From the IMG/VR virus record IMGVR_UViG_2916199983_000001: a stretch of DNA of 64,000 bases; one strand, written 5' to 3'. The translations under genes were made by a program, and so were the position numbers. Shown here one piece after another: positions 2,704 to 63,962 of the stretch. The stretch is from a virus. Lineage: Duplodnaviria; Heunggongvirae; Uroviricota; Caudoviricetes. Positions within the stretch are counted from its first letter, which is position 1; the number at the start of each line of letters is the position of its first letter. The notes below the pieces were generated by a model that saw only the letters and a list, made by a program, of their open reading frames with translations, was not told the DNA's origin and searched no databases.

Positions 2704-2770
2704 GTGTTTCTCCTTGTTGGTAAGTACTTATTTATATTAATGTGCGCCATGCGGCGCACAATCATTGTGT

Positions 2771-3181
2771 TCAGGCTGGAGGAAAGAACTTCTCCAGCGT
2801 GCGGTCTACAGCTTTATCAATGTGCATCAGATGCCAGACGACCATATCTTTGCTTCCCAGACCGCGGGTGTAGATCACGTCGAACTTACGCCAGGCGGCG
2901 TGAAACCAGTGCGGTGTATCATCAACCGGCAGATTCTCTCCAGCCTCCTTGAAGTACTTGAGCAGCATGGCCTGTTCAGCGGTGGGCGTCGGGCCAATCT
3001 CTTCCGCGTACATTCTGATGAAACGCTGCCAGTCGGCTTCATCTTCTGAAGGTTCCGGTGCGTTCATCTCTGCAATCGCCTCACGCAGCTGCGTCGCCCA
3101 TTCTGGCTCCGGGAAGCCCTGGGCAATTTCGGTATCCACTACATCCAGCGCAGCGTTGGCCGCGTCATACAGTTTCTTCAT
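2771..3181 (-). CDS. hypothetical protein
   Basis: 136-codon acidic ORF in the minus-strand operon. Confidence 0.45.
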   Translation of the reverse strand: MKKLYDAANAALDVVDTEIAQGFPEPEWATQLREAIAEMNAPEPSEDEADWQRFIRMYAEEIGPTPTAEQAMLLKYFKEAGENLPVDDTPHWFHAAWRKFDVIYTRGLGSKDMVVWHLMHIDKAVDRTLEKFFPPA

Positions 3182-3536
3182 GCTTTTTCTCCTGCATTAA
3201 AAGGAACACGGTCATTGCCGCTCTGAAAGGGTTAGGGTTCTGGATCAGATGTTGTGGCGTTGAGCTATCCACCTTTCTGTGGGCCGCTCTCCACTCACCG
3301 GGCTGTCTGGCAGGAATTACACCGATTCTGTGTCGGTAAATAATGTCCCACGCATCTTCCGGATCGTTACACCAGTCGAAGGTTCCGGCTCCGTTCGGGC
3401 CGATGGCGACCACTGCTGTGTAATCGCCTTCCTGTGAGCCTTTCCAGCCATATTGTGAAATGAGCGGTCGGTGGCCGGTGGCTTCCGCGACCAGGCAGTT
3501 AATCTCAAAGTCCGTCATCTCGCTGTAATTTTTCAT
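3165..3536 (-). CDS. hypothetical protein
   Basis: ATG at 3536 is preceded by AGAAGGAGATCGGGA, a strong SD. The track ORF extends upstream to 3554 where there is no SD. Confidence 0.5.
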   Translation of the reverse strand: MKNYSEMTDFEINCLVAEATGHRPLISQYGWKGSQEGDYTAVVAIGPNGAGTFDWCNDPEDAWDIIYRHRIGVIPARQPGEWRAAHRKVDSSTPQHLIQNPNPFRAAMTVFLLMQEKKHEETV

Positions 3537-3619
3537 TCCCGATCTCCTTCTCATCCGTTGCCGAACAACTATGTGGCGTTGTCACTTTGTACTTCTACGG
3601 ATGGTAATTCCGTATTAGT

Positions 3620-3634
3620 AACCAATTTGTTTTC
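3620..3634 (-). promoter_or_regulatory. AACCAA-T-TTGTTT leader motif (copy upstream of the 3536 gene)
   Basis: AGAAAACAAATTGGTT in the leader of the minus-strand operon. Confidence 0.35.
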
Positions 3635-3698
3635 TTGTTGGTGATAATACGGAAATAAAAAAGGCGTCCAAGTGGACGCCGTATCTTTGAAAAGGCTG

Positions 3699-4529
3699 TT
3701 ACTTCAACGCGATAAACGGAGTATTAGCCCCTTCAGTCATGTACTGAGGCAACTGGCCATTCCATTTGTTGATGGCTTCCAGCTCCATGACGTTCGGGTT
3801 CTGACGCAATGCTTCACCGCGCAACTTGATGGCATCAGCTTCTGCTTGAGCACGCTTGCGGATAGCGTCGGCTTCACCTTCGGCTTGTTCACGCAGCATG
3901 TTCGCTTCTGCCTTGCGCTGCTCAACTTCCTGCTGGCGCTGGAGCGTTTTCTGGTTCGCGGTCACTTTGGCATTGATAGATTCGATGACAGTGTCCGGGT
4001 AGTCTGGTTTGCCCACCCATGACAGGCTAATAACCTCAATACCTACCGGTGACATTTCTGCCTGAATGTCTTTCAGCGCATTGTCGAGCAGAGACGCCTT
4101 GCCGCCGTCGATGAACGTGTCGGTAGTCATGCGGCTGGCCAGACGGTTCAGTGAGTCCGCAATCTTCTGGCGCAGATCAGTGTCGGTAATGTCATCAACA
4201 CCTTTGCGATAGGTCTGGAATACGGTAGTTACTTTGTCGCGATTAACCAGATATGCCACACCAATTTTGTGGCCGATAGCTGTACCGTCGCTCATCTGGA
4301 ATGTGAACGGCTCATCGTAGGTTTTCATCTGTTTGAAAGTGGGGAAGGTGTACAGCTCGGTATTCAGACCAGTCCACTGACGGCCAACGCCGACAACTTC
4401 ACCGATACCTTTGTCTTCACCCAATTTGTTTACCTTAATGCCAACGTACCCCGGTTCCACGCGATCGCAGCCGGTCAGACCCATTGTGCAAATAGCAGCC
4501 AAAGCCACCGCCAGTAAACCTTTCTTCAT
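3699..4529 (-). CDS. SPFH/band-7 (prohibitin/HflC-like) lipoprotein
   Basis: The lipobox LTGC follows a signal peptide. The body is SPFH-like and is followed by an Ala/Glu/Gln/Arg-rich coiled-coil tail, as in HflK/C and YqiK. Confidence 0.7.
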   Translation of the reverse strand: MKKGLLAVALAAICTMGLTGCDRVEPGYVGIKVNKLGEDKGIGEVVGVGRQWTGLNTELYTFPTFKQMKTYDEPFTFQMSDGTAIGHKIGVAYLVNRDKVTTVFQTYRKGVDDITDTDLRQKIADSLNRLASRMTTDTFIDGGKASLLDNALKDIQAEMSPVGIEVISLSWVGKPDYPDTVIESINAKVTANQKTLQRQQEVEQRKAEANMLREQAEGEADAIRKRAQAEADAIKLRGEALRQNPNVMELEAINKWNGQLPQYMTEGANTPFIALK

Positions 4530-4532: not shown

Positions 4533-4733
4533 TTACTTCTCCTTAGTTTTATTGAGTGAGTTGATATACCTTCGGCCAGCTTTTAACAAGGCAACCGGGA
4601 AGACTACAGCGATGGCAAGTCCGATAAATAAGGCCAGATCGCTTTTAGCTGAGATAAGCGATGGAACCAGTAAACCGTAGATAAAGCAGACTGATATCAC
4701 CGCTGAAACAGCCATGAGATAACCCTTGATCAT
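4533..4733 (-). CDS. small two-TM membrane protein
   Basis: 66 aa with two hydrophobic helices. It sits immediately upstream of, and is co-transcribed with, the SPFH gene. The promoter motif lies at 4766..4784. Confidence 0.45.
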   Translation of the reverse strand: MIKGYLMAVSAVISVCFIYGLLVPSLISAKSDLALFIGLAIAVVFPVALLKAGRRYINSLNKTKEK

Positions 4734-4765: not shown

Positions 4766-4784
4766 ATAAGTAAGTACTTATATA
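4766..4784 (-). promoter_or_regulatory. recurrent operon-start motif ATAAGTA-ag-TACTTAT (representative copy)
   Basis: gataagtaagtacttatat. See the findings for the other copies. Confidence 0.45.
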
Positions 4785-4823
4785 TTTTCAAGTATAAAAA
4801 GGCGTCCATTGGACGCCTTGTGA

Positions 4824-5900: not shown

Positions 5901-5902
5901 GA

Positions 5903-7173: not shown

Positions 7174-8202
7174 TTACAGAGCGTCCAGTTCAGCCAGCAG
7201 GTCGTCGAGACCTTCGTCAGCTGGTGCAGATGCAGCGGCAGAAGATGCTGAAGCACTTGCAGCTGCGGCGGCTTCCGGAGCTTTAACTTCTTCCGGTTTA
7301 GTTTCCGGTTTGAACTCAGCTTCAGCGGCACGCAGGATCTCTTCATCAACCAGGCTGGTGGACTCTGGAGCCGGAGTGTGTGCTGTAGCGACAGCAGCTG
7401 CACCTTCCGTATGACCAGTGATAGAGCCAAAGCCTGGCAGTTCAGCAGCGGCTGATTTTGCAGCGGAAGAAATGGCCGGAGACGACATTGTTGCTGCCGG
7501 AGCCGCGATACCAATCAGACGACCCATAGTGCGAGCTGTAGACAGCAGACGGGTTTCGTCAGCCTGGTTCGCGTATGCGATCAGATCGTGTTGAGTAGTC
7601 CATAGCTTCTCAGGAATGTCGCCTTTGTAGACTTTACGTTTCGGGGATACGTCGTACTTGGTGTCACGACCGGAACCGGTACGCTTAATCAGGAACGCAT
7701 AGCCTTCTTCTTTGCTCAGTGGGTTGCCGATATCATCCGCAATATCTTCGGACATCACTTTGCAGATATCGTCGAAGACCGTAGACGGCAGCTCAATCAG
7801 CTGGCATTTCTCTGCATCCGCAAAGTCTTCACGCGCAGACAGAACACCGTTGACCAGATAACGCGGTGTGGCACGCATACTGTTAATGCGCTCTTCCATC
7901 GCTTTATTGCCCTTAAAGCGAGCACGACCTTCCATAACCATCTCACACAGCTGGCAAGCGTGGCCGTGGGTGTGCTGTTCGCAGATGTAGGCGGTGGTTA
8001 CATCTTTGCCTTCCTCATTCTGATGCTTAACGTAGTGCATACCGAAAGTCTGGAAGAACACGCCATTCGGGTCGTCCTTGTTCGGAAAAATGCGCAGATA
8101 GTTATTGCCGTCTTTCAGACGGGTCAAATCAACGTTATTGCCACGTTTAGAAGCAATATCGCCACGGGTCTTGTTAAGCAGATCAAGTAATGACTTAGAC
8201 AT
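7174..8202 (-). CDS. ssDNA-binding protein, T4 gp32-like
   Basis: The N-terminal region resembles gp32 (NYLRIFPNKDDPNGVFFQTFGMHYVKH vs gp32 AVIRFLPSK..APFAILVNHGF). It has a His/Cys cluster and an acidic C-terminal tail DDLLAELDAL. Confidence 0.65.
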   Translation of the reverse strand: MSKSLLDLLNKTRGDIASKRGNNVDLTRLKDGNNYLRIFPNKDDPNGVFFQTFGMHYVKHQNEEGKDVTTAYICEQHTHGHACQLCEMVMEGRARFKGNKAMEERINSMRATPRYLVNGVLSAREDFADAEKCQLIELPSTVFDDICKVMSEDIADDIGNPLSKEEGYAFLIKRTGSGRDTKYDVSPKRKVYKGDIPEKLWTTQHDLIAYANQADETRLLSTARTMGRLIGIAAPAATMSSPAISSAAKSAAAELPGFGSITGHTEGAAAVATAHTPAPESTSLVDEEILRAAEAEFKPETKPEEVKAPEAAAAASASASSAAASAPADEGLDDLLAELDAL

Positions 8203-8321
8203 GTATTTCTCCTTGTTGTGATTGTGGCCATTGGCGCTATGCGCGTTGGGCGTTCGTTTATTCGTGGCTCTTTCGAGCGAGAAGAATGATAGATCAGTAC
8301 TTACTTACGATCTAGCATAAA

Positions 8322-10363: not shown

Positions 10364-10739
10364 AACCCAGGGACTCCATTTTGAAAACCAAATGATTTAA
10401 TTCAGTACCATCGTTGGTGGGTGGTATGTTCCCAAATTTTCCAAAATAAACAAGATCATCCCTACAAAAACTGTGGGTCTGGAAAGGTGTTCAGTTGGAG
10501 GGAGATTGTGAGAATGGAAAAATAAATATTGCACAAAGTTTAAGGTCATGACTTAATAGTGGCGTCGGTTTGCAAGACAGACCTTATGAAAGCAGTTTTA
10601 GTAAAGCAGTCCGTAGTTCAGGTGTTATCCAACAGATTTCCCTTCTTCGTGAGTCTCCTCCTAAGTGCCCAAGTAAGTCCCACTCTATCAGACCAAATTC
10701 GCCGCGTTGTGTGGCTCTCGAATCAAGAAGGTAATATCT

Positions 10740-10955
10740 ATGTCTAACAAAATGACTGGTTTAGTAAAATGGTTTAACGCTGATAAAGGCTTCGGCTTTA
10801 TCACTCCTGCTGATGGTAGCAAAGATGTGTTCGTTCACTTCTCTGCAATCCAGAGCAATGACTTCCGTACCCTGGATGAAGGCCAGAAAGTTGAGTTCTC
10901 TATCGAGAATGGCGCTAAAGGCCCGGCAGCAGCAAACGTTGTAGCCTTAAGCTAA
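10740..10955 (+). CDS. cspA: cold-shock protein CspA family
   Basis: [23 protein letters not shown]...VFVHFSAIQ matches the CspA RNP1/RNP2 motifs. An SD AAGGTAATATCT precedes the ATG at 10740. A long 5' leader follows, as in cspA. Confidence 0.85.
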
Positions 10956-11085
10956 TACACTCTGGTAATCCATTTGCTGCGATAACGAAGACGGCTTTAG
11001 CCTGAGTAGACAGAACGATGTGATTATCAGACGGTGAAAGGCTGATCTGGCGGCATTCGCCCGACCAACACGCCACCAATAAATG

Positions 11086-16487: not shown

Positions 16488-16583
16488 GTGTTTTTCCTTA
16501 CTGTTTGTCGTTCGTGGGGTATATCTTATATAAATATATTAGTCTGTATAGTAAGTGATTACTTATTTTTACGGGTAAAACAA

Positions 16584-19089: not shown

Positions 19090-19302
19090 TTAAATGGTTC
19101 TAACGGCAAGAGAGCCGCAGCCAGTATTGATGAGAGTGAAATGTTTATTTTTTAGCTCAAAAGTGAAAACCGTCGTATCAACCATCTCCACGGGAAGCTC
19201 TTCGGATTCCAATTCCGTCAGGATCGTTGCCACGCCATCCAGTCCAATCGCATACGCGTGTCCAACCTCAAGGGCGGTCAATTTAGAAGTTATATTTTTC
19301 AT
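19090..19302 (-). CDS. hypothetical protein
   Basis: 70-codon ORF only. Confidence 0.3.
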   Translation of the reverse strand: MKNITSKLTALEVGHAYAIGLDGVATILTELESEELPVEMVDTTVFTFELKNKHFTLINTGCGSLAVRTI

Positions 19303-19566
19303 TTCATATCATCCAACTGAACACATTTGAAAGTTTGTCAATACTACTACCTATTGTATCAATATGGAATGAGTCTATATCAGATACGTATTACTTTTGC
19401 CTGTAAGCTAATAGTGACAAATTGCCTAAAAAACATAGTATAATAGCGGTGTCCCAGGGGATTAGTACCTATCGAAATTAAATAGATAAGTCTTTACAAC
19501 CCTGGCCTTTGCTGTAATATCAGTAAGCACTTACCAGAGATAAACAAAACACGCAAGGTTTACTAC

Positions 19567-19953
19567 ATGGCTACCAACGAAACAGAGATCAAACAAGGTC
19601 GCTACGCAGCTTATATTGACTCGTTAATCACAATCTCGCCTAAAAGTCAGGCCACCATTGCCAAAGAGGTTGGGTACAAGAACGCCAACAATCTCTCCCT
19701 CATTAAAAGCGGCAAAATCCCGCTGCCGGTAGATAAAGTTCGAGCTTTAGCTAAAGCGCTAGATGCAGACCCGGTTCGACTGATGCTGATGGTTCTGGAA
19801 GAACGCCACCCTGAGTTGCTCGAATTTTTTCGCGAAGAGGGAACTGCGCCTCTCTCCGCTGATGAAAAACTTGTTCTAGAAGCGTTCCGTAACCGTTTTA
19901 ACGGTCAGCAGGGCGCATCAGAAAAGGTGGTCGAGGCCATCAAGTCACTGTGA
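19567..19953 (+). CDS. HTH (XRE-like) DNA-binding protein
   Basis: SQATIAKEVGYKNANNLSLIKSGK fits a helix-turn-helix. It follows an AT-rich region with a promoter-like TTG..TATAAT (about 19420..19445). Confidence 0.55.
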   Translation: MATNETEIKQGRYAAYIDSLITISPKSQATIAKEVGYKNANNLSLIKSGKIPLPVDKVRALAKALDADPVRLMLMVLEERHPELLEFFREEGTAPLSADEKLVLEAFRNRFNGQQGASEKVVEAIKSL

Positions 19954-21051
19954 GAAATTTACACGAATAAGCTCGGTGGCTAGACGATCTCCCTTGAATT
20001 TGTGGTCTATCTCGTCTAAGTCTGTTTGATTAACGATAGATGCGATGTACGCTGAGAAGTTGTTCAAGGCGTCTCGCATCTCATCCATATAATCGTGGCG
20101 ATCATAGACGCGATCTATCCCTTCAAGACTGTGGTTCATAATCTTACGAGCCACCTCCTGGTTAATCCCTAGAGCAGGGAAATAACTACGCGCTGTACGT
20201 CTCAGATCGCGTGGGGTGAATGACTCAACCTCCATCAACTCAGGTCGTTCCAGTATCCTTCTCAGTGCCTGGGCAATGGCCACCTTAGACATTGGCGTAT
20301 CCACGCCCTTCTTCTTATTCGAAGGAACGAGCCACTGGCTGCCTTTCCCGTACTCAAACAACTCTTCCACGCATTTGCGCATTAATGGGCTTAACGGCAG
20401 CGCGTGCTGTCTGGCCGATTTGTTACGCGTACCTTGATTCCATACATCACGTTGAAGGTTGAACTCATCCTTTCTGGCTCGGAGCACTTCATCGGGGCGT
20501 CTGGCAGCGACAAGACAGAGCCTGGCCGCCCACTTTGTGCCTTCGCACACATTGAAGTAATCCCAGACGTTCCAGAATACCCAGACCTCGGCGTCGGTCA
20601 GCTTACGTTCGCGCGGTACTGGCTTTGCGCCACCGGCAACTCTGTTGAGCGACATATCATTCAACGGTGATGTATCAATCAGCCCCTGAAAGGCGCACCA
20701 GCTCAGGAACTGTTTCATCAGGGAGAACACACGTCTGCCCTGGACGATCTTGCCTTCCAGTATCAGCGGGTTCACCAGCTGGTTAACCAAGACCCTACTT
20801 ATATCACTTACCTTTACTTCAGAGATATGCGGCATTACATGTATCAAAACACAATGAACAGCTATTTCAGGTCGACGCCTCGTTATCAGTAAAGATAAGC
20901 GAGTGAATAACATGAAGGCGGAAGAAAATGACATGTCTCCGTCGAATTTGGCGGTCGACATTGCCGACAAACCGGAAGCGCGTTCGAGGTACTCGATGGC
21001 TTCCCGAGAGGTGTTTTCTGCTGCGCGTGCTTTATCAAAGGTGTTTTTCAT
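19945..21051 (-). CDS. tyrosine recombinase (integrase / Cre/Xer-like)
   Basis: The C-terminal catalytic signature is present (RDLRRTARSYF ... HSLEGIDRVYDRHDY, i.e. R..H-x-x-R..Y). The exact start is uncertain. Confidence 0.7.
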   Translation of the reverse strand: MKNTFDKARAAENTSREAIEYLERASGLSAMSTAKFDGDMSFSSAFMLFTRLSLLITRRRPEIAVHCVLIHVMPHISEVKVSDISRVLVNQLVNPLILEGKIVQGRRVFSLMKQFLSWCAFQGLIDTSPLNDMSLNRVAGGAKPVPRERKLTDAEVWVFWNVWDYFNVCEGTKWAARLCLVAARRPDEVLRARKDEFNLQRDVWNQGTRNKSARQHALPLSPLMRKCVEELFEYGKGSQWLVPSNKKKGVDTPMSKVAIAQALRRILERPELMEVESFTPRDLRRTARSYFPALGINQEVARKIMNHSLEGIDRVYDRHDYMDEMRDALNNFSAYIASIVNQTDLDEIDHKFKGDRLATELIRVNFSQ

Positions 21052-21148
21052 CGTCCACTCACTGAGTGAAGCCCTTTTACTGTATGTATAAACAGTATAT
21101 TAGGCATAAGTTTCTGTATGATCAACCATAAAATAGCCTGTTTTGTAC

Positions 21149-21181
21149 AATGATTCCATACTTACTAGGTATGGAATCATT
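21149..21181. other. lox-like site: 13-bp perfect inverted repeats around a 7-bp spacer
   Basis: AATGATTCCATAC ttactag GTATGGAATCATT. It lies about 100 bp upstream of the tyrosine recombinase start. Confidence 0.5.
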
Positions 21182-21224
21182 AAAGGGCGGAAATTTAAAT
21201 TCTGAGGTTTTATTAGCGTGATTG

Positions 21225-21635
21225 TCACGGATTAGTGAGCGCTTGAAATGCAGCGGCGTATGCAGCGATATCGGCCATAATTTTTGGATCTTTCGCATAC
21301 TGATGTGCGTTGTTAGGGAAGATTGCCAATAGGCTATACACATCTTGGAAATGTGCATGTTGACTGTAAACGAGTGCGCGGTCGCTTGTGCAATTGAATC
21401 TGTTGCGGCTGCTGGTTCGTTCTTGCTTCGTGAACAAGAGATGAACGTGATAAACGCGGGAGGACACGATAGCACCCGGAGCCGTATACGGGCCATCTTT
21501 GCCGAATACGGCTGGGCACATGCCTTGTTTAAGCGACGTGAAATCGTCGAGTAACGTGATCTTTAAGTCAGGCTTTATATCGAAGGTCGGCTGTAAAAAT
21601 TGGGCGTAACTATCACTGTTCCATGTGACCTTCAT
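21225..21635 (-). CDS. YafO-family toxin-like protein
   Basis: It aligns with E. coli YafO (GMCPAVFGKDGPYTA vs GVLPDIFGRDALYDD; VYHVHLLF vs VAHIHLAN; LVYSQHAHFQDVYSLLAIFPNNAHQYAKDPKIMADIAAYAAAF vs LVYCQGAFDEQAWLLIAILKPEPHKLARDNNQMHKIGKMAEAF). Confidence 0.5.
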   Translation of the reverse strand: MKVTWNSDSYAQFLQPTFDIKPDLKITLLDDFTSLKQGMCPAVFGKDGPYTAPGAIVSSRVYHVHLLFTKQERTSSRNRFNCTSDRALVYSQHAHFQDVYSLLAIFPNNAHQYAKDPKIMADIAAYAAAFQALTNP

Positions 21636-21644
21636 CGTTCAACC

Positions 21645-22253
21645 TCAATGGAATGAGAAGTTGGCGAAGACGTCCTCATCAATGAGGCCAGTCTGCGATT
21701 CGATGACGTCTACGTCGTTAAAACACTGATTTAAAATCAATAGCAGATCAGAGATAGCCAAACGATACTCAGTTACAGAATCGCTCAGGCGCTTCAAGTA
21801 TGGATGAGGTTGCTCAGAGTCACGAATCAACTTGTTAACGAATCCCTCCAAACCACGAATGGTCAGGTCAACGTTCTTCAGTTCTTCGTAACGGCTTTCA
21901 CCGAAGCTGCTGCGAATCTTTTCCGCTTTCCATCCAGAGATGGCATTAGCCAGGCGAACGTGTTTCGCCGTCAATTCTGCGAGCTTGCTTTCGATCTCTG
22001 CCAGCTGTGCGGCATCGCCGTTCTCCTGAACAGGGATACCTGCGGTTCTCACATAGGTTTGTTCTTTGAATCCTGCGAATTTTGCAGAGTGCTTCACCGT
22101 GCCACGGAAGCGTCGATATCCAAGCGGCTCAATAAAGACACGCCCAGATTTAGCTTTAGGCTTTGCATTTGAAAAGCGCGAAGCGTTAGAGGTCACAGTA
22201 GCAAGGGCATTGCTAATGACACTCATATCTTCCAGGCAATTTTCTAAACGCAT
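21645..22253 (-). CDS. hypothetical protein (candidate partner or antitoxin of the YafO-like gene)
   Basis: 202-codon ORF ending 10 nt upstream of the YafO-like start. I recognise no family. Confidence 0.4.
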   Translation of the reverse strand: MRLENCLEDMSVISNALATVTSNASRFSNAKPKAKSGRVFIEPLGYRRFRGTVKHSAKFAGFKEQTYVRTAGIPVQENGDAAQLAEIESKLAELTAKHVRLANAISGWKAEKIRSSFGESRYEELKNVDLTIRGLEGFVNKLIRDSEQPHPYLKRLSDSVTEYRLAISDLLLILNQCFNDVDVIESQTGLIDEDVFANFSFH

Positions 22254-22348
22254 AAAACCTCTTAACTACTCAATGGCTCGTAACTAAGTGTACGCTGTGT
22301 TGATGAAAGCGACAAATAATAAACGGCCCCAAAAGGAGCCGTATTGTA

Positions 22349-22597
22349 TTACAGAGTGCTCGCAAAAGCAGCAAATTCTGTATAGCCGCCGATAGGTTCA
22401 CCATTTACGAACACCTGCGGTATGGTTTCCACCGGCTTGCCAACCAGGTCGCTTAACTTCTCTTTGTCGATCCCGGCAGACACAATATCGATGTATTCGT
22501 AATCACCAAAGTCGTGGCCGTGCAGCTGCTTCGCCAGCTCGACCGCACGTTTGCAGTATGAGCAATTATCCCGTCCGTAGATAACGACCTTCATCAC
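22349..22597 (-). CDS. glutaredoxin (NrdH/GrxA-like)
   Basis: CSYC active site at residues 12-15 of MMKVVIYGRDNCSYCKRAVELAK. Confidence 0.7.
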   Translation of the reverse strand: MMKVVIYGRDNCSYCKRAVELAKQLHGHDFGDYEYIDIVSAGIDKEKLSDLVGKPVETIPQVFVNGEPIGGYTEFAAFASTL

Positions 22598-22953
22598 TTC
22601 ACCTCGTGCAGCTGCTGCTTGAGAAGATAGCCTTCCAGGGGCCAGATTTTGGCAATCGCGTTCTGGCGTGCAATTTTACGTCCGATCTCCGGATCAAAGT
22701 TCTCCGGGCTGGCGCACGCAGACTCGCCGGTTACGGTGTAGCCGTTCTCCAGCACAAGAACGCAGAAGGTCAGCAGTTCGAGCGGGGCCGGTTCAGGCTC
22801 TTCCTGCTTCAGCCACAACGGTGAGCTGCGATATCCGTCCGCGCCGGTAAAGTAAAACTCGCCTGAGATAACAGCTTCAATGCGTTCCGGGGTAACACGC
22901 GCGGCCGTTTTGCCTTTGGCCACAATCTCTTTTTCGATATCCATATCGGTCAT
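22594..22953 (-). CDS. hypothetical protein
   Basis: 119-codon ORF coupled to grx. Confidence 0.45.
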   Translation of the reverse strand: MTDMDIEKEIVAKGKTAARVTPERIEAVISGEFYFTGADGYRSSPLWLKQEEPEPAPLELLTFCVLVLENGYTVTGESACASPENFDPEIGRKIARQNAIAKIWPLEGYLLKQQLHEVK

Positions 22954-22968
22954 TTTGGTTTCCTTACG

Positions 22969-23172
22969 TTAAAACTGAGCGATCCGGGCACGAAGAATCA
23001 GGTCATACGCCTTCATCGTGTCCAGCTGCTTAATGAGGATGATGCGGTCGACATACAGCAGGCGAGCAAACTCGTCGCCGGCAATGTATGCCTCCAGTTC
23101 TTTTATGCGGCTACACAGTTCTTCGTGTTCATCCATGACACGTTTCTGGTGTGGCAGGTACTCTTTGGTCAT
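22969..23172 (-). CDS. hypothetical protein
   Basis: 67-codon ORF. Confidence 0.35.
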   Translation of the reverse strand: MTKEYLPHQKRVMDEHEELCSRIKELEAYIAGDEFARLLYVDRIILIKQLDTMKAYDLILRARIAQF

Positions 23173-23181
23173 TGGCTTTCC

Positions 23182-23955
23182 TTACTGATAGGCTTCCAGT
23201 GCGACTTTGCATAGCTCAGAACGCACGCAGTCTTCGGTCGCAAACTCAATAAGGCCAACATGGGAGGAAGGTTTAAAACGCTCCAGTGCATCTTCCAGAC
23301 CAGACTTAACATTGCCTGGCAGGTCGCATTGCGTCACATCTCCGTTCACAATGACGGTTACGTTCTCGCCCATACGGGTCAGGAACATTTTCATTTGTGA
23401 CGCTGTAACGTTTTGCGCCTCATCCAGAATGACTACAGCGTTCTCGAATGTGCGCCCACGCATGTAAGCGAAGGGGGCAATTTCTACTTTGGCCACCTCT
23501 GGCTTTAAGCAATATTCAAGGAACGAGCCACCCAAACGCTTCTGTAGCACGTCATAGACGGGCCGGAAGAACGGAGCGAACTTCTCGCTCATGTCGCCCG
23601 GAAGGAAGCCCAGATCTTCTTCTGCTTGCAATACCGGACGCGTCACGATGATCTTCCCGACTTCCTTATCCAGCAGACGCTGCGCTGCGACGGCAGCTGC
23701 CAGGTACGTTTTGCCGCAGCCAGCTTCGCCTGTGGCGAACGTTAGCGTTTTGGTATCGAGGGAGATGAGATAGTGGGCCTGGGCCTCGTTTCGCGCTTCG
23801 AGAGGAGAGTTGTCGCGCTTCGGTTTCGGAGGCAGAGCAGGGGCGGCAGCCAGTTCGTCAACAATGATTGTGTCAATTTCGTAGCCGTGGATGCGTGGTT
23901 TTGACTTCAGAGCCTGACGAGCTGCGCGACGCGTCTGTTTACGTTTGTTTCCCAT
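23182..23955 (-). CDS. phoH: PhoH-family ATPase
   Basis: Walker A GEAGCGKTYLA and the PhoH core are present. I place the start at ATG 23955, with AAAGGA 8 nt upstream. The track ORF starts at a TTG at 23970. Confidence 0.85.
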   Translation of the reverse strand: MGNKRKQTRRAARQALKSKPRIHGYEIDTIIVDELAAAPALPPKPKRDNSPLEARNEAQAHYLISLDTKTLTFATGEAGCGKTYLAAAVAAQRLLDKEVGKIIVTRPVLQAEEDLGFLPGDMSEKFAPFFRPVYDVLQKRLGGSFLEYCLKPEVAKVEIAPFAYMRGRTFENAVVILDEAQNVTASQMKMFLTRMGENVTVIVNGDVTQCDLPGNVKSGLEDALERFKPSSHVGLIEFATEDCVRSELCKVALEAYQ

Positions 23956-24195
23956 ATTGAGTCCTTTCAAGTGAGTAACTGAAAGTACTATACATTAGAA
24001 ACACAAAAAAGATAAGTGTGTACCTACCTATCAGAATGACTTCAACAAAGTTTTTTACGGTATTAAAGGGGGAAAATAAAGTTTTTTTAGTTATTATAGG
24101 ATAGGCGCTTTGCTTCAATCATGACTACTATGAAGCGGTCATGTGATACAGTTTAAGCTTGCCAGTGCGTCTACTAAAGGAATACTGAAATTATT

Positions 24196-25401
24196 ATGAC
24201 GATACCAGCCAAAATAGATACCACTAATTTACTCACTATACTTGGAGTGATCGCTGCCGTATGGGCAATAATTACTCCTACCAGCAGACTGCGATTTCGT
24301 TTTTGTATGACTCGGTGGGACCTACTAATCATTGGGCTGATTTTTATACTAGCTAATTATTTGGTTTTTGCACCTGCATTAAGACAAGTTGGACTGTATT
24401 ACAGTTTCGGACCGTGGATATGGGGATTGGATAGTTCGAGTGCAGTATATCTATTGTTTCTCTTGGCTGCCTCATATCTTTTCATTCGGCTAAAATCGCC
24501 AACATTAAATCGAGGTAAAATAACACTATTTCTTGAGCTAATTGAGAGTTTACATCTTACCAAAAAATATGATGAGTTAGTATTGTTAGTTGAGCCTCAG
24601 TTAGACGAAATAATATCCCTTGCTAATGGAAAACCGAACCTTATTGTTCAATGGATTGATAAGCTATATGGCGGCTCCGATCGAAATGCGTTATTGAATG
24701 GAGAAGAACCCAAAGAACGAAATGTCTTGGTGAAAGGTCTATATTCCCTACTAAGTCCTTTGCGTAAAAAGCTATCATCAAATTATGAAGCCAGTGATAA
24801 AGCCCGAGAGGTTTTGCTGAATATACTAACTTCTCCTGATCTTACAAGGCATCTTTCACTTGCATATCCTCATTTTTGTTTGAGGCTTATTGGTGCTGAT
24901 GAGGTCGTTCGTTCTGATTTCATTGATAGATTTATTAATTCGCTGCTTGACTCACCTGGTAGTCGTCTTTATGTAGAACTTAAAAATAACCAAAATACAT
25001 GTACTGGAGGACGTCTTGCGATACCTGAAACCAACCGCTTGCTTCACTTTTTCTTTGCCGACTCAGTGTATGCAAGTAAAAGTGGCATATATAGAGCTAT
25101 AGGTGAATCTGTTTGCTGGCGTTTAGATGAAGACAGTAAGTTATCAGAAATACTAAACAAGCCCCTTGGCTCTTACCGTGAGCAAAGTAGATTTAGTTGT
25201 CCTATTAATTCTGGAATAACAATGTTCGAAATTATGGTGCATCAAGGTATTCATCAAAGATTGCAAGATCATCTTTGGCTGCATTATTTCAAACACTTTG
25301 CTGAAAAAATATTATATCAAATGAAAGTTCAGAGTATTGACTCAATCGCAGAACATCAAACACCATATCACTATCTTCTATGTCGCCTATTCGGTATTGC
25401 T
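24196..25401 (+). pseudogene. N-terminal 402 codons of an IS-disrupted, AT-rich gene for a 3-TM membrane-anchored protein
   Basis: Three N-terminal TM helices are followed by an unrecognised cytoplasmic domain. The apparent stop TGA at 25402..25404 is the first 3 nt of the IS terminus TGACCTGCC. Confidence 0.6.
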
Positions 25402-25534
25402 TGACCTGCCCCCACGATTAGATACAACACTCAGTTAGTAACGTCGGAATCTTCATTCTCAGAATGGTAATCCCCCCGAAAAGCCGGTGTGTTCATAAGT
25501 AGAATTTTCTCGTAATCTGAACCGGGAGATTTCT

Positions 25535-28209: not shown

Positions 28210-28324
28210 TGGTTTAATTAAGCAGAGGAGCAAGGTCCTCGATTATGACATTGGTGTTATTAAATGAAATTGACTAACTTTGTCTTTTTTTTCAAGTAAT
28301 ATTGTTCTTTTTTGCTAATCTTAC

Positions 28325-40793: not shown

Positions 40794-40874
40794 GCTTATA
40801 ACCGTAGTCGTGTACTTACTTATTGAGCGCAGTTTAAAAAAGCCCCACCAGGGGGCTAAATGGTTTATCAAGGC

Positions 40875-41669
40875 TTACCAGGTCGCCCAGCCAGTCATTT
40901 TGTCCTGAGCGGCTTCGAACCGGTATGGCTCCAGTAAATCGTTGGCATGGTGGACGGCGTATGATTTTGCCTCCTGTTTAATCATCGGCAGCTCGTTGGC
41001 CAGGCGTGCCACCTGCCCTGCAAAACTGGCGAGTACACCGTCACATGCCTGACCCGCGTCGACAATGATACGCACCAGGTCTAAGTCGCTACGGCACATA
41101 TCGCAGATGATGCCGTATTCCACCTCACGAATGCGCTCAACGGCCTTTTTGGTATCGCCACTGACCACCAATTCCAGCAAACCAGGTGGGGTTGTCAGAT
41201 CTGTTACGCGTTCGGTAACTTCAGGCAGTTCGACAATGCTCAGGAACGCCGCGATAGACGGATCATCCTCTACACCAGCCCTGCCTTTGATCGCGCGAAG
41301 AGTTGCGTCGACAATTTCCTCAAATCGTTCACCTTCATCACACACCGCCTGATTGGTGTAGACAACGCGGCCGTCGTACCATGCACCGGCACGTACTTCG
41401 ACCGTTGCGTCCTTCATTTTGCGAGTGAACGCCACGAGTGCCGCGCGTTTCTGTTTAACACCAGGCAGCTCCGGGGACTCTCCAAAACGAACCCATACCC
41501 GCATGTATTTCGAGCCTTCCCCAAGAGGTGCGGTGCCCACAGACGTGGCGATGTGCTCCAGCGCAGTTTGGATCGCCTCATCGATAATCTTCTGGCGCTC
41601 TTCTGTATCAATTTCTACGCCTGATTTGTCGATAATTACGGTAACGGACTTCTGAATATCTGCTTTCAT
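40875..41669 (-). CDS. hypothetical protein
   Basis: 264-codon ORF. The promoter motif lies at 41713..41733. Confidence 0.45.
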   Translation of the reverse strand: MKADIQKSVTVIIDKSGVEIDTEERQKIIDEAIQTALEHIATSVGTAPLGEGSKYMRVWVRFGESPELPGVKQKRAALVAFTRKMKDATVEVRAGAWYDGRVVYTNQAVCDEGERFEEIVDATLRAIKGRAGVEDDPSIAAFLSIVELPEVTERVTDLTTPPGLLELVVSGDTKKAVERIREVEYGIICDMCRSDLDLVRIIVDAGQACDGVLASFAGQVARLANELPMIKQEAKSYAVHHANDLLEPYRFEAAQDKMTGWATW

Positions 41670-41852
41670 AAAGGTTCCTCAATTCCTTCGTCGCGCATAT
41701 TCTTACAAAAAAATAAGTATGTATCTACTTAACAATATAGGCATTTTGTTTCGTTTATAAAAGATGCTCTTAATCCTGCCCAGTTGTAGCAGTCACGTCA
41801 CTTCTATATGATTTCACTTAACTAATACGTTAAACACACAAGGCTTAGGTCT

Positions 41853-45583: not shown

Positions 45584-46309
45584 TCAACAGAATCGCCGTG
45601 CTTCTTCCAGTTCTTCCGGGAAGTGCGCGTAAATCACACGCTCAGGCACGATTTCCATCAACCAGACAGCGGAGAAGATGATGCGGACGCGTTTGTCTCG
45701 GGTAATGCCACGCAGACGCTCCAGAACCCACTCAAAATAGCGTTCTTGAATCGGGTCGTCCTGCATGTCTCCCAGATGCTTAAAACTCACCAGAGAGTCA
45801 TCCAGACGGGTTACAGCGCGTTTGGCTAACTTCTCTTCGAAAATCTCGATCAGCTCGGGCTGCCAGAGATGCTGGGGGCGAGGTAATTTGTCCCACAGAC
45901 GGCGTGCAGCTGCGGAAAGAACGGTAGAAATAAAGTAGTCATAAGAGCAGCAGTACTGGTCGGCAAACTGGCGTGCTTTCCAGAGAGACGTTTTGTTGGC
46001 CGTCGACAGCTCCTGATACGGCACACGTTTCAAACCGGTAGTGAATTGGGCCGTCTCATAGTGCTCGCGGCCATGCGACAGCATGATGTATGAGTACTGG
46101 CGCTTGTATGCCTCAGTGAAGAGGCATGTGGCCATAAGCGGGTGCATGTCGCGGTAATCGAACCACTTTGTCTCGAACAGCTCTGCCTCATCCTTACAGC
46201 GTGACAGCCCAATATTCTCGGCCACCCACTTGTCCATGACTGTGGTGTCCCACTCGGTCATGAAGTCGTACTGGTCGTTGTTAATAGTGTTAAAGAAGAT
46301 CTGGCTCAT
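45584..46309 (-). CDS. hypothetical protein
   Basis: 241-codon ORF. The promoter motif lies at 46321..46342. Confidence 0.45.
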   Translation of the reverse strand: MSQIFFNTINNDQYDFMTEWDTTVMDKWVAENIGLSRCKDEAELFETKWFDYRDMHPLMATCLFTEAYKRQYSYIMLSHGREHYETAQFTTGLKRVPYQELSTANKTSLWKARQFADQYCCSYDYFISTVLSAAARRLWDKLPRPQHLWQPELIEIFEEKLAKRAVTRLDDSLVSFKHLGDMQDDPIQERYFEWVLERLRGITRDKRVRIIFSAVWLMEIVPERVIYAHFPEELEEARRFC

Positions 46310-46500
46310 GTGCTTTGCTCGATAGGTAGTTACTTACTTATCATAATGAGCGAATCATAGCGACTGGAGACTGTTTTTGGAAGTGGAAACGGAAGGGAAT
46401 GTGTCTGGGAAGTTGGCATAGAAAAAGACCTGCTCCCGTATAAATAATAATAAGTAACTTAGTATTTATATACGAAAACAGGTTCACAGAAGTATAATTT

Positions 46501-51975: not shown

Positions 51976-52037
51976 GAATCGTCAAATCGGGATGGCTGTT
52001 TTATACCACAAATCACTCTTACATGGTAGGTAAGTAC

Positions 52038-52826
52038 TTACACACGAGCACCATAAATTGCACCGACTTTAGTCCATGTAGGCACGTTCCCCGTGACAGC
52101 CTTACCCGCCGCGCCACCTCCGTACATTGTCCCCAATCGTCCAGTGGCAGCGGCACCAGCAGCCCCCACATTACCTCCACTACCGCATGTGTATTGGACA
52201 GCAGTAGAGCCGATCAAATATTGAGCGCCAATCCCGGCAGCGGTTAGAGTGCCAGAAGTTGCCGCACGCGAATTTGAAGCTGGTGGCCTTGTAGTGTTTG
52301 CAACACCAAACGGGCGACCGCCCCCACCCATACCACCATCGGCTGAGTTACCGCCACCGCCACCGCCACCACCGGCAATAGCGCCGTTATTGGTTATTCT
52401 TAAACGGGTCCCAATTCCGTTGTTAATAGCAGTGCCACCGGCAGCACCGCCACCTTTAACGCCACCATTACCGCCACGGCCATAGACAGTTACACCTGCG
52501 TTGATTACCAGGCTGATATAAGAGTTGGTAAGCGAACTTGGGAAATCTAAACATGGCACGCCGCTACTGTACGACACCAGATCCCCTGTAATGGTAACAA
52601 CGACTGGTGTCGACCCCTGTGATTTTAAATAGTTGATCAGTGTGTCTTTGTTGTAGTTATGATTCGCACCGATGCTGTAATGAATTTCCGTAGAACGACC
52701 TGCTAACTGAGACATATTCCCAGCAGCAGACAATTGCACCGCAGTTCGAGCCGCGCTCATCCATCTCTGGCCGGTAACACTAACAGCCGAAGATCCAATC
52801 CAACCGGGAACACCGACAATTGGCAC
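52038..52826 (-). CDS. glycine-rich tail fibre-like protein
   Basis: GTG start with TAAGGAG 5 nt upstream. Long GGGGGGGG and GxG tracts. It sits in the tail-fibre block. Confidence 0.55.
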   Translation of the reverse strand: MPIVGVPGWIGSSAVSVTGQRWMSAARTAVQLSAAGNMSQLAGRSTEIHYSIGANHNYNKDTLINYLKSQGSTPVVVTITGDLVSYSSGVPCLDFPSSLTNSYISLVINAGVTVYGRGGNGGVKGGGAAGGTAINNGIGTRLRITNNGAIAGGGGGGGGNSADGGMGGGGRPFGVANTTRPPASNSRAATSGTLTAAGIGAQYLIGSTAVQYTCGSGGNVGAAGAAATGRLGTMYGGGAAGKAVTGNVPTWTKVGAIYGARV

Positions 52827-57003: not shown

Positions 57004-57026
57004 ATAAGTAAGTACATACCTATATT
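57004..57026 (-). promoter_or_regulatory. hairpin (GGGCATccATGCCC at 56986..56999) plus ATAAGTAAGTACAT motif between the J and side-fibre genes
   Basis: cataagtaagtacatacctatat. Confidence 0.45.
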
Positions 57027-61803: not shown

Positions 61804-61818
61804 AAATTTCCCTTCTTA

Positions 61819-62406
61819 CTAAAGCTGGTCGATGGTGATCGAAGAACTCACAACCTGTGAGCCGACCAGAATTTCCTCGCCATAAATGAGCTGAACCGGG
61901 TTGCCCTGGTTAGTGGTGTTTTGTGGCCCGTCGAAATAAAACGAGTTCGAGTTATCTGCCTGCCTTACGCTGTCATTGGTCGCCTGGGGCGAAATTAACT
62001 GCGAAATACCTCCCATCATTAGCGACAAGCCGAGCGGGGCCAGCGCTGGGAACCAGAATGAGGCAACCATGACGAGTGCCCCTACGACTGTCTGGAACCA
62101 ACCAAAAGCCTTACCGCCACTACCGCGAGGAACCGGCGTGATGCGGATCTTCGCGATGTTGTCGGACTGCCCCATCATTTGAAACTCGCTCTCATCAACC
62201 GACCACTTATGCCCCTGCTTATTGGTGATCTGGATGTGGTAACTGTCGTAGGTCTTCATGTTGCGTTTCATCCAGGCTTTTAAGCCCGGACGGTTGGCTT
62301 CGACCAAATCCAACGCCTGTTTGGTGTTGCGCACTTTTAAATGCCAGTGGCGGCCGAAATGTCTGGCCATCGGGCCACCAAGTTGCACATGAACTAACTC
62401 AGACAC
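61819..62406 (-). CDS. tail assembly protein, lambda gpI-like
   Basis: It sits between the K-like and J-like genes. Its hydrophobic C-terminal half resembles gpI. Confidence 0.6.
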   Translation of the reverse strand: MSELVHVQLGGPMARHFGRHWHLKVRNTKQALDLVEANRPGLKAWMKRNMKTYDSYHIQITNKQGHKWSVDESEFQMMGQSDNIAKIRITPVPRGSGGKAFGWFQTVVGALVMVASFWFPALAPLGLSLMMGGISQLISPQATNDSVRQADNSNSFYFDGPQNTTNQGNPVQLIYGEEILVGSQVVSSSITIDQL

Positions 62407-63218
62407 GTTTCATCTCCCTTGAGTAAGTCTCTGTGACGCAGGTGGTGCGTCGTGTGTTTCTGGTACATGCCACCGTAATAAGCGCGACAGCTCAGACGGT
62501 CGATCTGGTGGTGCAGGATCATTCCGTCTCCGATGTACACCGCGCAGTGGTCAGGCATCTTTCCGTACTGAATGAAGAAGACGTCACCACGCTGGGGTTC
62601 CGTCCCCGGCGCCAGACGAACAAGCCCTTCATTGCGGTAGTTCTGATCGAGAATGTCGGTATCGCCCGTGTACCACGATGGAATATGCAGGTGCGGGTTT
62701 GGATTCAACTCGACGTTGAACTCACGCTTCAGGTAGTCGCGGCACAGCATCCAGCAGTCGAAGACACCAAACACATAGGGCCGCCCCAGATAAGGCATCT
62801 CAAAGCCGTCTGGGGTGATCACATTCATCTCACTGAAGTGAAATGGCGCATCGCCCTCGACGTTCTTCCGAACAGCCAGAATCAGCCACGGAACTTCCGT
62901 TGCCTCGCATCCGGCGCGGTCGGCGTCTGACGCTTCAGCTGATTCGTCAGTGTGGGAGTGCCAGATGGCAACCACGTCTCCCGCATCTTCCGCTGCGATA
63001 ATGTCGTCAGCGTGCATAACAAACGTGTTTTCCGGGTTTTCCGACACGTTCCGGGCTTCCATGAAGCGATATTTCTCGCCAGTGGTACGTACCAGAAAGC
63101 CACACGCTTCGTTCGGGTAGCGTTTGATGGCTGTCAGATAGATTTCCTGCATAACGTCCGAACCAAGCTCAGGGAAAGCTCTATTACCCATAACGCGTTG
63201 CTCCAATGAACCCGCCAA
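62394..63218 (-). CDS. tail tip assembly protein, lambda gpK-like (MPN/JAB + NlpC/P60)
   Basis: JAMM motif WHSHTDESAEASD, followed by an NlpC/P60 Cys/His region. Confidence 0.8.
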   Translation of the reverse strand: MAGSLEQRVMGNRAFPELGSDVMQEIYLTAIKRYPNEACGFLVRTTGEKYRFMEARNVSENPENTFVMHADDIIAAEDAGDVVAIWHSHTDESAEASDADRAGCEATEVPWLILAVRKNVEGDAPFHFSEMNVITPDGFEMPYLGRPYVFGVFDCWMLCRDYLKREFNVELNPNPHLHIPSWYTGDTDILDQNYRNEGLVRLAPGTEPQRGDVFFIQYGKMPDHCAVYIGDGMILHHQIDRLSCRAYYGGMYQKHTTHHLRHRDLLKGDETCLS

Positions 63219-63882
63219 AGTGGATTACGCCATTGGCAAAGTAGTTACGGCGTGCGTTGCATGAGTCGTAGCGTTTCGTGCAGTAATCCGCGCCTGACAT
63301 GGTGGTTTGCTGGTTGTTTTTGTCGAAATAGGGGCCGGTGTAGCCGCACTCTGGACCGCGGTATTTCCACGGGCAGGTGTTTTTGATGATCTGGCGGTAC
63401 GGCAGCTGCACGCCCATCAGATCGAACACACTCGACAGCTCAAACTCGACAACCTCATGGGTTTCGAGAGTCTTCTGTTCGATGAACCACATCTCATCCG
63501 GGAAGTGCTGATTTGGATCTGCGGTTGGATTCCCGTCTTTGAAGTTGGCCGCGTCGAGAAAACGCGCCAGCGTCATCTTGCGGATGATGCGACAGCCAAC
63601 CAGATCGTCGTTTGCCTGAACTTCAGCGGAGACAGTTCCGGCAAAGTTGGAGACCTGGATTTTTGGACGCGGCAAAGTACCCTGACCAGTCTTATCAAAG
63701 CCTGACGCCTTGATTGGCCACGGTTCGTAGGACACGCCTTGCCAAACGACTGGCTCCATCAGTTCGTTTGTACCAGCGTGGAAAAACAGCTTGCCCCCAG
63801 AGGTGGTGTTCGACATATCAAGTTCGAACAGCTCAATGAGCGCGGAGGGCGACAAGCTCTGAATATCAGCTTTAATACCCAT
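63184..63882 (-). CDS. minor tail protein, lambda gpL-like
   Basis: It aligns with lambda L (WQGVSYEPWPIKASGF, CPWKYRGPECGYTGP, NGVIHFGGF). Start ATG 63882 is preceded by AAGGAAGAAACG. Confidence 0.85.
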   Translation of the reverse strand: MGIKADIQSLSPSALIELFELDMSNTTSGGKLFFHAGTNELMEPVVWQGVSYEPWPIKASGFDKTGQGTLPRPKIQVSNFAGTVSAEVQANDDLVGCRIIRKMTLARFLDAANFKDGNPTADPNQHFPDEMWFIEQKTLETHEVVEFELSSVFDLMGVQLPYRQIIKNTCPWKYRGPECGYTGPYFDKNNQQTTMSGADYCTKRYDSCNARRNYFANGVIHFGGFIGATRYG

Positions 63883-63940
63883 CGTTTCTTCCTTGAAATA
63901 AAGAGGCGCCAACATCCTGTCAGCGCCTATAGATAATAGT

Positions 63941-63962
63941 AAATAAGTGCTTACTTATCTAG
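63941..63962 (-). promoter_or_regulatory. hairpin plus AAATAAGTGCTTACTTAT motif upstream of the gpL-like gene
   Basis: The hairpin AGGCGCcaacatcctgtcaGCGCCT at 63903..63928 comes first, then the motif. Confidence 0.45.

Follow-up and report, generated by a model that had tools for sequence, protein, structure and literature searches.

In the plasmid-prophage P1 one repressor, C1, acts through operators scattered over a genome of ∼100 kb, with no single immunity region, and the gp71 stoperators of mycobacteriophage L5, ∼25–30 sites in short intergenic spaces, bring about global silencing at promoters or as roadblocks. Here we describe a palindrome that recurs in ∼27 copies over the ∼120-kb SSU5/pHCM2-type phage-plasmid of Citrobacter sp. 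RHBSTW-00570, a circular plasmid of 119,726 bp (NZ_CP056401.1). The stretch of DNA from which the work started, IMG/VR virus record IMGVR_UViG_2916199983_000001 (64 kb; hereafter the window), is identical to bases 1–64000 of this plasmid and holds 12 to 13 of the copies. The motif was analysed over the whole 119.7-kb plasmid and not just over the window.

Compared with the known systems, the motif shows distinct differences. In P1 the operators are 17-mers without symmetry, their reader is a large protein not of the XRE type, and the late operons use a separate activator, Lpa, whereas the site described here is a symmetric 20-mer with a small Cro/CI-type candidate reader and is the same at early and late blocks. 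The L5 stoperators are 13 bp long, asymmetric and orientation-dependent; the present sites are palindromic and orientation-free, and a roadblock function is only proposed for them. The lambdoid regulators (CI/Cro, 434, P22 c2) resemble the candidate reader in its predicted N-terminal fold and in the reading of 14–20 bp palindromes by a dimer, and also in the setting of the regulator gene, which is transcribed divergently from a small gene and adjoins an integrase gene. Lambdoid operators, however, are clustered at OL and OR, in contrast to the ∼27 dispersed copies seen here. The IncP regulators KorB and KorA likewise coordinate many operons through a palindromic operator present in about a dozen copies (12 for KorB), but KorB is a ParB-family protein that can act at a distance, and ParB-like proteins are only rival candidates in the present element. 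On balance we favour the view that the motif is an operator for a symmetric dimer of a phage-encoded protein, most probably the 128-residue XRE/Cro-C1-type repressor encoded at 19567–19953.

Sequence and placement of the palindrome

The 20-bp consensus comprises the half-sites ATARGTAAGT and ACTTACYTAT, the perfect form being ATAAGTAAGTACTTACTTAT. A position weight matrix (PWM), iterated from a seed of five sites taken from the first-pass annotation of the window, converged on 30 sites. It is symmetric, with a correlation of r = 0.78 with its own reverse complement and an axis between positions 10 and 11, and the palindrome extends over 20–26 bp. With the perfect palindrome as query, 30 matches with at most five mismatches are found in the plasmid (1, 4, 6, 9 and 10 matches with one to five mismatches, respectively), compared with a mean of 0.05 and a maximum of 1 in first-order Markov simulations of the whole plasmid, and a mean of 0.08 and a maximum of 2 in simulations of its intergenic DNA. 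A strict gapped pattern gave two matches against none expected.

The motif is not equally frequent inside genes: 29 of the 30 matches are centred in intergenic DNA, which makes up 15% of the plasmid. The one exception, at 75987, falls within the final 100 nt of the portal gene, with the scaffold and capsid genes downstream of it. The intergenic regions that bear sites head the replication, nucleotide-metabolism, lysis, head and tail gene blocks. Best matches are found in both orientations relative to the gene, and over all sites the distance from centre to start ranges from 11 to more than 100 nt.

These results modify several statements of the first-pass annotation. It had placed the motif at the start of almost every minus-strand operon, which is too broad, as strong sites (PWM at least 22.9) occur in 14 of the 32 scanned intergenic stretches of the window; the 14th is a site-like core in the hairpin-repeat gap 46310–46500, counted once. 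Its distance of 10–60 nt to the start codon is roughly right, although the real spread from centre to ATG, for window sites with an annotated downstream gene, is 11.5–96.5 nt. A GC-rich hairpin, said to precede most copies, was found within ∼60 nt of 11 of 26 sites, five times upstream and six times downstream of the site along the direction of transcription, and T-runs do not accompany all of these hairpins. With no fixed hairpin at every copy, a terminator or terminator–promoter unit was rejected as the general rule and would describe a minority of sites only. Where the annotation had left a choice between promoter and operator, the operator is supported by the symmetry, the independent half-sites, the occurrence in both orientations and the way in which the motif tracks a phage helix-turn-helix (HTH) regulator; the promoter is not supported.

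Eleven of its 13 coordinates are genuine strong sites (2716, 4766, 8289, 16547, 24012, 29308, 41713, 46322, 52026, 57004 and 63939), with PWM scores of 23–31.5 against a null 95th percentile of 3.3. The entry at 40812 corresponds to a half-site only, with six mismatches and a score of 3.0, at background level, and that at 46449 sits in the loop of a separate hairpin repeat of ∼70 bp. Absent from its list were the strong site at 2389–2408 and a core-only site at 19523–19534. The sites of the window and the repeat are as follows.

2389–2408: site ATAGGTAGATACTAACTTAT, four mismatches, PWM 27.8, 1 nt ahead of the annotated ATG of gene 2208–2387 (minus strand)
2716–2735: site GTTGGTAAGTACTTATTTAT, 12 nt upstream of the ATG of gene 2428–2703; a GC hairpin lies 5 nt upstream in the gene direction
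4766–4785: site ATAAGTAAGTACTTATATAT, two mismatches, upstream of gene 4533–4733 and the SPFH gene; an intrinsic-terminator-like hairpin precedes it
8289–8308: site upstream of the gp32-like single-stranded DNA (ssDNA)-binding protein gene 7174–8202
16547–16566: site, five mismatches, between the CobT-like and CobS-like genes
19523–19534: core-only site GTAAGCACTTAC, directly downstream of the promoter-like TTTACA-16-TAATAT of the regulator gene
24012–24031: site upstream of phoH, a position kept in Rhizobium phage B1VFA
29308–29327: site ATAAGTAAGTAAATACTTAT, two mismatches, ∼730 nt upstream of tRNA-Asn (28502–28576, minus strand)
40804–40823: marginal half-site GTACTTACTTAT, six mismatches to the 20-mer, PWM 3.0, close to the null 95th percentile
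41713–41732: site in a divergent intergenic region, upstream of gene 40875–41669
46322–46341: site 12 nt upstream of the ATG of gene 45584–46309, at the head of the helicase/primase cluster
46428–46483: separate hairpin repeat GCCTGCTTCCGTATATAT...ATATATACGGAAGCAGGC, with TAAGTnACTTA in its loop
52026–52045: site upstream of the holin/lysis genes; its inner 12-mer (52030–52041) is a perfect GTRAGYRCTYAC
57004–57023: site upstream of the tail-fibre gene, with a GC hairpin between site and start codon
63939–63958: site upstream of the minor tail protein L gene, with a terminator-like hairpin between site and start codon

The character of the signal was examined in an alignment of 62 sites from three enterobacterial genomes, oriented by the downstream gene. 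T2, G5, T6, T10, A15, T18 and A19 are each conserved in at least 92% of the sites, and the flanks are AT-rich and mirror-symmetric, with Y-A-T at positions 21–23 and R-W-A at positions 0 to −2 at equal frequencies. The gene-proximal edge and flank read T(0.92) A(0.95) T(0.69) Y A(0.65) T(0.65); on the distal side the A at −2 has a frequency of 0.65 and position 0 is R. As TATyAT occurs equally on both edges, it belongs to the palindrome and cannot count as an oriented −10 element. No −35 consensus is seen in the aligned sites, and the reading TTGAAA-17-TATCAT/TATGAT applies only to the sites at 4766, which on the minus strand forms the 17-bp spacer between TTGAAA and TATCAT, and 75987. A generic scan of 40–60 kb gave no useful signal: promoter-like sequences by the sigma-70 consensus numbered 26 (21.8 expected), none of which coincided on the gene strand with a copy of the motif, and terminator-like sites numbered 15 (21.1 expected).

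Self-complementarity, intergenic placement and the occasional GC-rich hairpin alongside could also be expected of a hairpin formed in RNA or in single strands, with a role in termination, processing or mRNA stabilisation. The pairing positions do not covary, however. At pair 4/17 the combinations AT, AC, GT and GC occur 15, 14, 13 and 11 times, Watson–Crick pairs making up 42%, and at pair 0/21 all four combinations are equally frequent; it is the sequence that is conserved and not the pairing. This lack of covariation agrees with independent reading of the half-sites on duplex DNA, and it speaks against an RNA hairpin or cruciform. The palindrome is also not followed by a U-tract, and no Rfam family matches at the sites. 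With covariation and an Rfam match both absent, the RNA hairpin was rejected, and we regard it as scarcely credible. In Rhizobium phage B1VFA the half-sites TAAGTAA/TTACTTA are almost invariant and the 4-bp centre is variable. By its symmetry and its independent half-sites, the motif has the form of a palindromic operator of the type read by dimeric HTH repressors.

Conservation of the sites and the candidate repressor

The motif extends well beyond the Citrobacter plasmid, 877 PLSDB records matching the window itself. The Escherichia coli phage-plasmid Cyrano has 22 sites, often in orthologous positions, and the Klebsiella phage pJN2-26 has 28; the motif is also present in SSU5, in a Photorhabdus contig and in 79 of 80 IMG/VR loci around the regulator gene. 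Searches with the regulator by tblastn also matched Rhizobium phages of 115–122 kb, and one of these, RHEph10, has ∼42 proteins in common with the Citrobacter element, at 21–58% identity and in the same gene order. In B1VFA (59% GC) there are 26 copies of [G/A]TAAGTAAG-YR-CTTACTTA[T/C] in 84.6 kb, including intergenic copies that, like those of the Citrobacter element, lie upstream of phoH, in the cobT–cobS gap and to the sides of the regulator gene. In RHEph10 and RHph_Y2_11 a variant palindrome is found instead, GTCAGTMAATATTKACTGAC, with the same 4-nt periodic build and ∼19 copies in RHEph10. Its retention across this lineage indicates that the motif is an old feature, read by something that the phages themselves bring. 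A search of IMG/VR for distant relatives of the regulator returned only proteins of at least 66% identity and added no new motif class. The Rhizobium phages RHEph10, B1VFA and RHph_Y2_11 encode RepC, ParA/ParB, CobT/CobS and DnaE and have the same head–tail order as the SSU5-type elements; they also carry a sigma-70-family sigma factor between cobS and dnaE, which the enterobacterial elements lack.

Two divergent genes of the window are central to the question of which protein reads the sites.

19090–19302, minus strand: small gene, 70 aa, divergent from the regulator gene
19567–19953, plus strand: XRE/Cro-C1-type HTH regulator, 128 aa, WP_000224608.1

The 128-residue regulator is the sole transcription-factor-like protein that BLAST finds in common between the Citrobacter element and RHEph10. 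It gives a weak match to the Pfam family HTH_31 (18.1 bits, against a cut-off of 27) and is named an XRE-family regulator by NCBI. In its AlphaFold model (mean pLDDT 79) the predicted N-terminal domain of ∼62 residues superposes on P22 c2, 434 Cro and C.AhdI at 1.5–1.9 Å. The gene overlaps the end of the integrase gene, and the 70-residue product of its divergent neighbour, upstream of which a partial half-site ATAGGTAGTAGTAT is found on the minus strand, may be a Cro-like partner. The Cyrano orthologue is CYRAN_45, annotated as a putative repressor. CYRAN_45 is among the few genes transcribed above background in a Cyrano lysogen, and Cyrano is induced by ciprofloxacin (PMC9928086). The promoter block of the regulator gene, TTTACA-16-TAATAT followed at once by GTAAGCACTTAC, is kept in three genomes; placed right after the promoter, this core has a position that fits autorepression, and 19523–19534 is probably an autoregulatory operator.

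Each lineage, Rhizobium phages included, has copies of its own form of the motif on the flanks of the regulator gene, and the residues of the regulator's HTH vary with the motif. A first class, with S-Q...G-Y-[K/S]-N, is found in the Citrobacter element, Cyrano, pJN2-26 and B1VFA, and a second, with S-H...G-W-T-Q, in RHEph10 and Y2_11, so that the HTH residues follow motif class and not host phylogeny. For every other protein that was compared, the two Rhizobium phages resemble each other more than either resembles the Citrobacter element, from which we conclude that the first class is ancestral and that the change occurred on the RHEph10 branch. An enterobacterial variant, P0017, has a rewritten recognition helix, GYKYQNQVSFIK, and in the 20 kb of its locus that were analysed about 7 sites are shifted to GTATGTA/TACATAC half-sites; there was no complete plasmid of this type in PLSDB or among complete E. 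coli genomes, an example of the type being the 103-kb contig ABZCOC010000014.1 of GCA_050572525.1. T at position 4 occurs in 16 of 42 half-sites there, against 30 of 156 (Fisher p = 0.014, from a loose scan of a small sample), and a looser 'skeleton' scan, meant to pick up variant sites, yielded false positives in numbers too high for it to be of use. The putative cognate operator variants are GTATGTA for the P0017 helix and GTCAGTMAATATT for that of RHEph10, the shift in P0017 being suggestive only.

In SSU5 the entire phoH–regulator segment (compare 19090–23955 of the window) is missing, and with it the integrase gene and the 70-residue gene, but the sites have been kept. The regulator therefore cannot be an essential activator of the operons that bear them, and its absence fits a repressor. 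The missing segment would explain the lytic behaviour of SSU5, in contrast to relatives that are mostly found as plasmids.

In the mechanism that we propose, the repressor would occupy the dispersed sites in the plasmid state and keep the virus genes silent. Where a site overlaps a promoter, as in TTGAAA-[site]-TATCAT at 4766 and at the portal/scaffold junction at 75987, it would block initiation. At 41713, at 95477 and at their orthologues the operator precedes an extended −10-like sequence, TGTAAGAAT, which in the case of 41713 lies ∼8 nt downstream of the site. At the repressor's own gene, the core-only copy after the promoter would cover the probable start point and provide negative autoregulation. 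Sites that lie upstream of terminator-like hairpins or beside start codons may act as roadblocks to read-through from upstream, or may belong to promoters that are not recognised as such. An S24 peptidase domain is missing from the regulator, and an antirepressor is therefore probably required for induction.

Alternative readers and the overlap with SlmA sites

Several points weigh against a Cro/CI-type repressor as the reader. The link between regulator and sites is correlative, and the co-variation, as read from the sequences, comprises one clear class switch and one small-sample variant, chosen partly by the class I consensus, and hence few independent events. ParB-like proteins are kept in all lineages too and diverge between B1VFA and RHEph10 (53–56% identity). 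Genome-wide dispersal of operators is unusual for repressors of the Cro/CI type, a recognisable −35 element is missing at most sites, and the presence of sites upstream of hairpins or only 1–12 nt from start codons implies a heterogeneous relation to promoters. The consensus also fits the site of the host protein SlmA, and a FljA-like protein of family PF03614 leaves a remaining doubt as a further regulator, though it has no detectable homologue in RHEph10.

An activator-dependent phage promoter in the style of the P1 late promoters, with a dimeric activator near −20, TATyAT as the −10 element and no −35 element, would account for the position of sites at the head of gene blocks, for the sequence of the gene-side edge quoted above, for the missing −35 element at most sites and for the same motif at early and late genes. 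We give it a small chance, because the −10-like flank is mirrored on the distal side, and is hence part of the palindrome, and because the flanks of the 20-mer in B1VFA carry no such signal. No fixed distance to the start is possible either, as several sites lie 1–12 nt from an ATG, one with a Shine–Dalgarno sequence between, and some sites are upstream of terminator-like hairpins. The sole conserved transcription-factor-like protein is moreover dispensable for lytic growth, being absent from SSU5, and the sigma factor of the Rhizobium phages is absent from enterobacterial elements that share the motif. A phage sigma factor was rejected as reader on the latter ground, the motif being common to phages with and without the gene. 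A late promoter of the P1 Lpa type was also rejected, since the motif heads early and late blocks alike at distances of 11 to more than 100 nt from the start, although no search aimed at Lpa-like proteins was made. A low but appreciable probability attaches to another phage DNA-binding protein acting as global regulator or organiser, the candidates being either of two ParB/Srx-like proteins, which would resemble KorB, and the FljA-like protein of the enterobacterial elements. ParB-like proteins are 38–43% identical between Citrobacter and Rhizobium, and the divergence between B1VFA and RHEph10 runs across the motif classes; the ParB-like gene is separated by a site from the divergent helicase operon, of which the FljA-like gene is a member, and the FljA-like protein has a very strong Pfam match (E = 1e-96). 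The FljA-like protein, however, has no BLAST-detectable homologue in RHEph10, where the motif is of the same type, and no HTH was recognised in the ParB-like open reading frame (ORF) by reading its translation, whereas the HTH residue pattern of the XRE protein tracks motif class and its gene is flanked by sites in all lineages.

The gene for the FljA-like protein and one ParB/Srx-like ORF lie in the part of the plasmid beyond the window. The FljA-like protein (175 aa, 85424–85951, PF03614 'Repressor of phase-1 flagellin') is 77–83% identical in Cyrano and pJN2-26, and its gene sits in a plus-strand helicase operon headed by a motif copy. The ParB/Srx-like ORF (82336–83016, minus strand; 226 aa, MDVKITILQVEVANLRPNPWNT...) is intact, has no gene in the PLSDB table and is the orthologue of Cyrano CYRAN_119; a motif copy lies just upstream.

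The resemblance to the sites of SlmA, the nucleoid-occlusion protein of the host, raises the question of whether the sites serve this protein primarily, for silencing, for plasmid positioning or for a division block during replication of the element. Both are 20-bp palindromes built of 4-nt GTAA/GTGA-like units, and in the central 12-mer they differ at positions that are reported to be tolerant. The SlmA rule requires G, T, A and G at positions 1, 2, 4 and 5, with any purine at 3 and any pyrimidine at 6, and a change of G to A at position 3 gives a dissociation constant of ∼60 nM compared with ∼50 nM (PMC3020112). The inner 12-mer GTAAGTACTTAC, at positions 5–16 of the phage 20-mer, obeys this rule, the SlmA-binding sequence (SBS) being GTGAGTACTCAC. 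The 20-bp SBS consensus GTAAGTGAGCGCTCACTTAC (PMC4423959) is in register with the enterobacterial phage consensus and matches it at 14 of 20 positions (P = 0.0035 for at least 14 matches in a random palindrome). For the B1VFA consensus the agreement with the SBS rises to 18 of 20 positions, provided that its variable central Y and R are taken as C and G, the bases of the SBS. In the plasmid, SlmA cores occur five times in perfect form and 13 times with one mismatch (0.03 and 2.1 expected, respectively), and operator cores that fit the rule lie, for example, at 52030–52041 and 19523–19534. A promoter becomes repressible by SlmA when an SBS is positioned between its −35 and −10 elements (PMC3573117), and at one Vibrio promoter SlmA is a transcriptional activator (PMC5519180).

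SlmA as the primary reader is nevertheless unlikely, and we leave it a slight chance. SlmA belongs to the TetR family, and the phage sites, at about one per 4 kb and intergenic, also fill the Rhizobium phage B1VFA, where they are even nearer to the SBS consensus. SlmA is not known from Alphaproteobacteria. Among the 62 aligned sites, position 7 is A in 90% and never G, and position 10 is T in 94%; as SlmA tolerates or prefers G and C at positions 7 and 10, where the phage sites never have G and rarely have C, respectively, another reader must constrain these positions. Just 18 of the ∼27 sites are within one mismatch of the core rule, the remaining third deviating more. Chromosomal SlmA sites are reported to lie outside promoter regions and number 24–52 per 4.6-Mb chromosome (PMC3020112). 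A SlmA/TetR protein encoded by the phage itself was rejected as reader, since tblastn with SlmA, TetR and AcrR probes found no match in the three enterobacterial genomes or the Rhizobium phages.

It is a tentative possibility, of rather low probability, that the operators of the proposed phage repressor double as SlmA-binding sites in enterobacterial hosts, the two proteins competing for the same DNA. If so, the plasmid, with 18–27 SBS-like sites and ∼5 copies per cell, would outnumber the chromosomal SlmA sites. SlmA could then help to silence lytic promoters, and the plasmid could locally forbid septum formation until it has been partitioned; lytic replication would titrate or activate SlmA throughout the cell, coupling derepression to a division block.

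Surroundings of the sites and wider implications

Apart from its cargo, the element has the gene content of a phage-plasmid, almost all of it on the minus strand: repA, parA, T4-like replication and recombination genes, nucleotide metabolism and a siphovirus head–tail–lysis module. The cargo is an insertion at ∼24–38 kb with IS3, a Tn3-family element and an ars operon. This island (∼24100–38500), positioned around the tRNA-Asn region, contains IS3-family elements, including an IS1222-type frameshift element at 27403–27520, a Tn3-family transposase and resolvase, and a complete arsRDABC operon. In a scan of the window, the IS, Tn3 and ars genes had no strong motif copy among them. The DNA that holds the site at 29308 is backbone and not cargo, and it is present in SSU5 as well, with the same arrangement of site and tRNA-Asn.

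The site at 2389–2408 has orthologous copies in Cyrano and pJN2-26, and in all three elements the operator ends 1 nt before the ATG of the downstream gene (2208–2387 in the window), with no Shine–Dalgarno sequence; either the start is misannotated or the gene has an unusual mode of expression. B1VFA has a site in the same cobT–cobS intergenic position as that at 16547. The gene behind the site at 8289 (7174–8202, minus strand) is annotated as a regulator, but its product is a T4 gp32-like ssDNA-binding protein (PF08804, E = 9e-72), and this match rules it out as a transcription factor. Its neighbours are UvsY-like, RecA/UvsX-like and UvsW-like genes, which together make up a T4-type recombination set in a temperate plasmid-phage. 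On the plus strand at 10564–10998 lies a full-length cspA-type thermoregulator RNA leader (Rfam RF01766, 225 bits) that precedes a plasmid-borne cspG-like cold-shock gene.

The hairpin repeat at 46428–46483 occurs in three copies per genome, the others in this plasmid being at 79526–79594 and 102740–102796. Its arms, GCCTGCTTCCGTATATAT and ATATATACGGAAGCAGGC, are near-perfect over up to 24–26 nt and enclose an AT-rich loop. It is found also in Cyrano, pJN2-26 and SSU5, with one copy just upstream of the small-terminase gene, and may serve as a pac site or origin, as a terminator in both directions or as an operator of a special kind.

Systems of this kind, with a phage repressor that reads a conserved palindrome at operon starts, are known. 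What appears to be new is the family concerned, the SSU5-type phage-plasmids and their Rhizobium relatives, together with the pairing of a Cro/CI-type protein with palindromic operators dispersed over a whole genome, and the overlap with the SlmA site. We found no earlier description in the literature of the motif or of SlmA in connection with phage-plasmids, and no account of how SSU5-type phage-plasmids stay silent.

Phage-plasmids of the SSU5/pHCM2/pMT1 type are widespread in Salmonella, E. coli, Klebsiella, Citrobacter and Yersinia, and they carry resistance genes; pMT1, from Yersinia pestis, is said to be a defective relative. The operator and its candidate repressor would offer a handle on the switch between lysis and lysogeny, on heteroimmunity groups and on the escape of cargo genes from silencing. 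Conservation between phages of Gamma- and Alphaproteobacteria indicates an old regulatory design, common to two widely separated branches of the family. If the match to the SlmA site is functional, it would tie the regulation of a mobile element to the division of its host cell, a link not described before.

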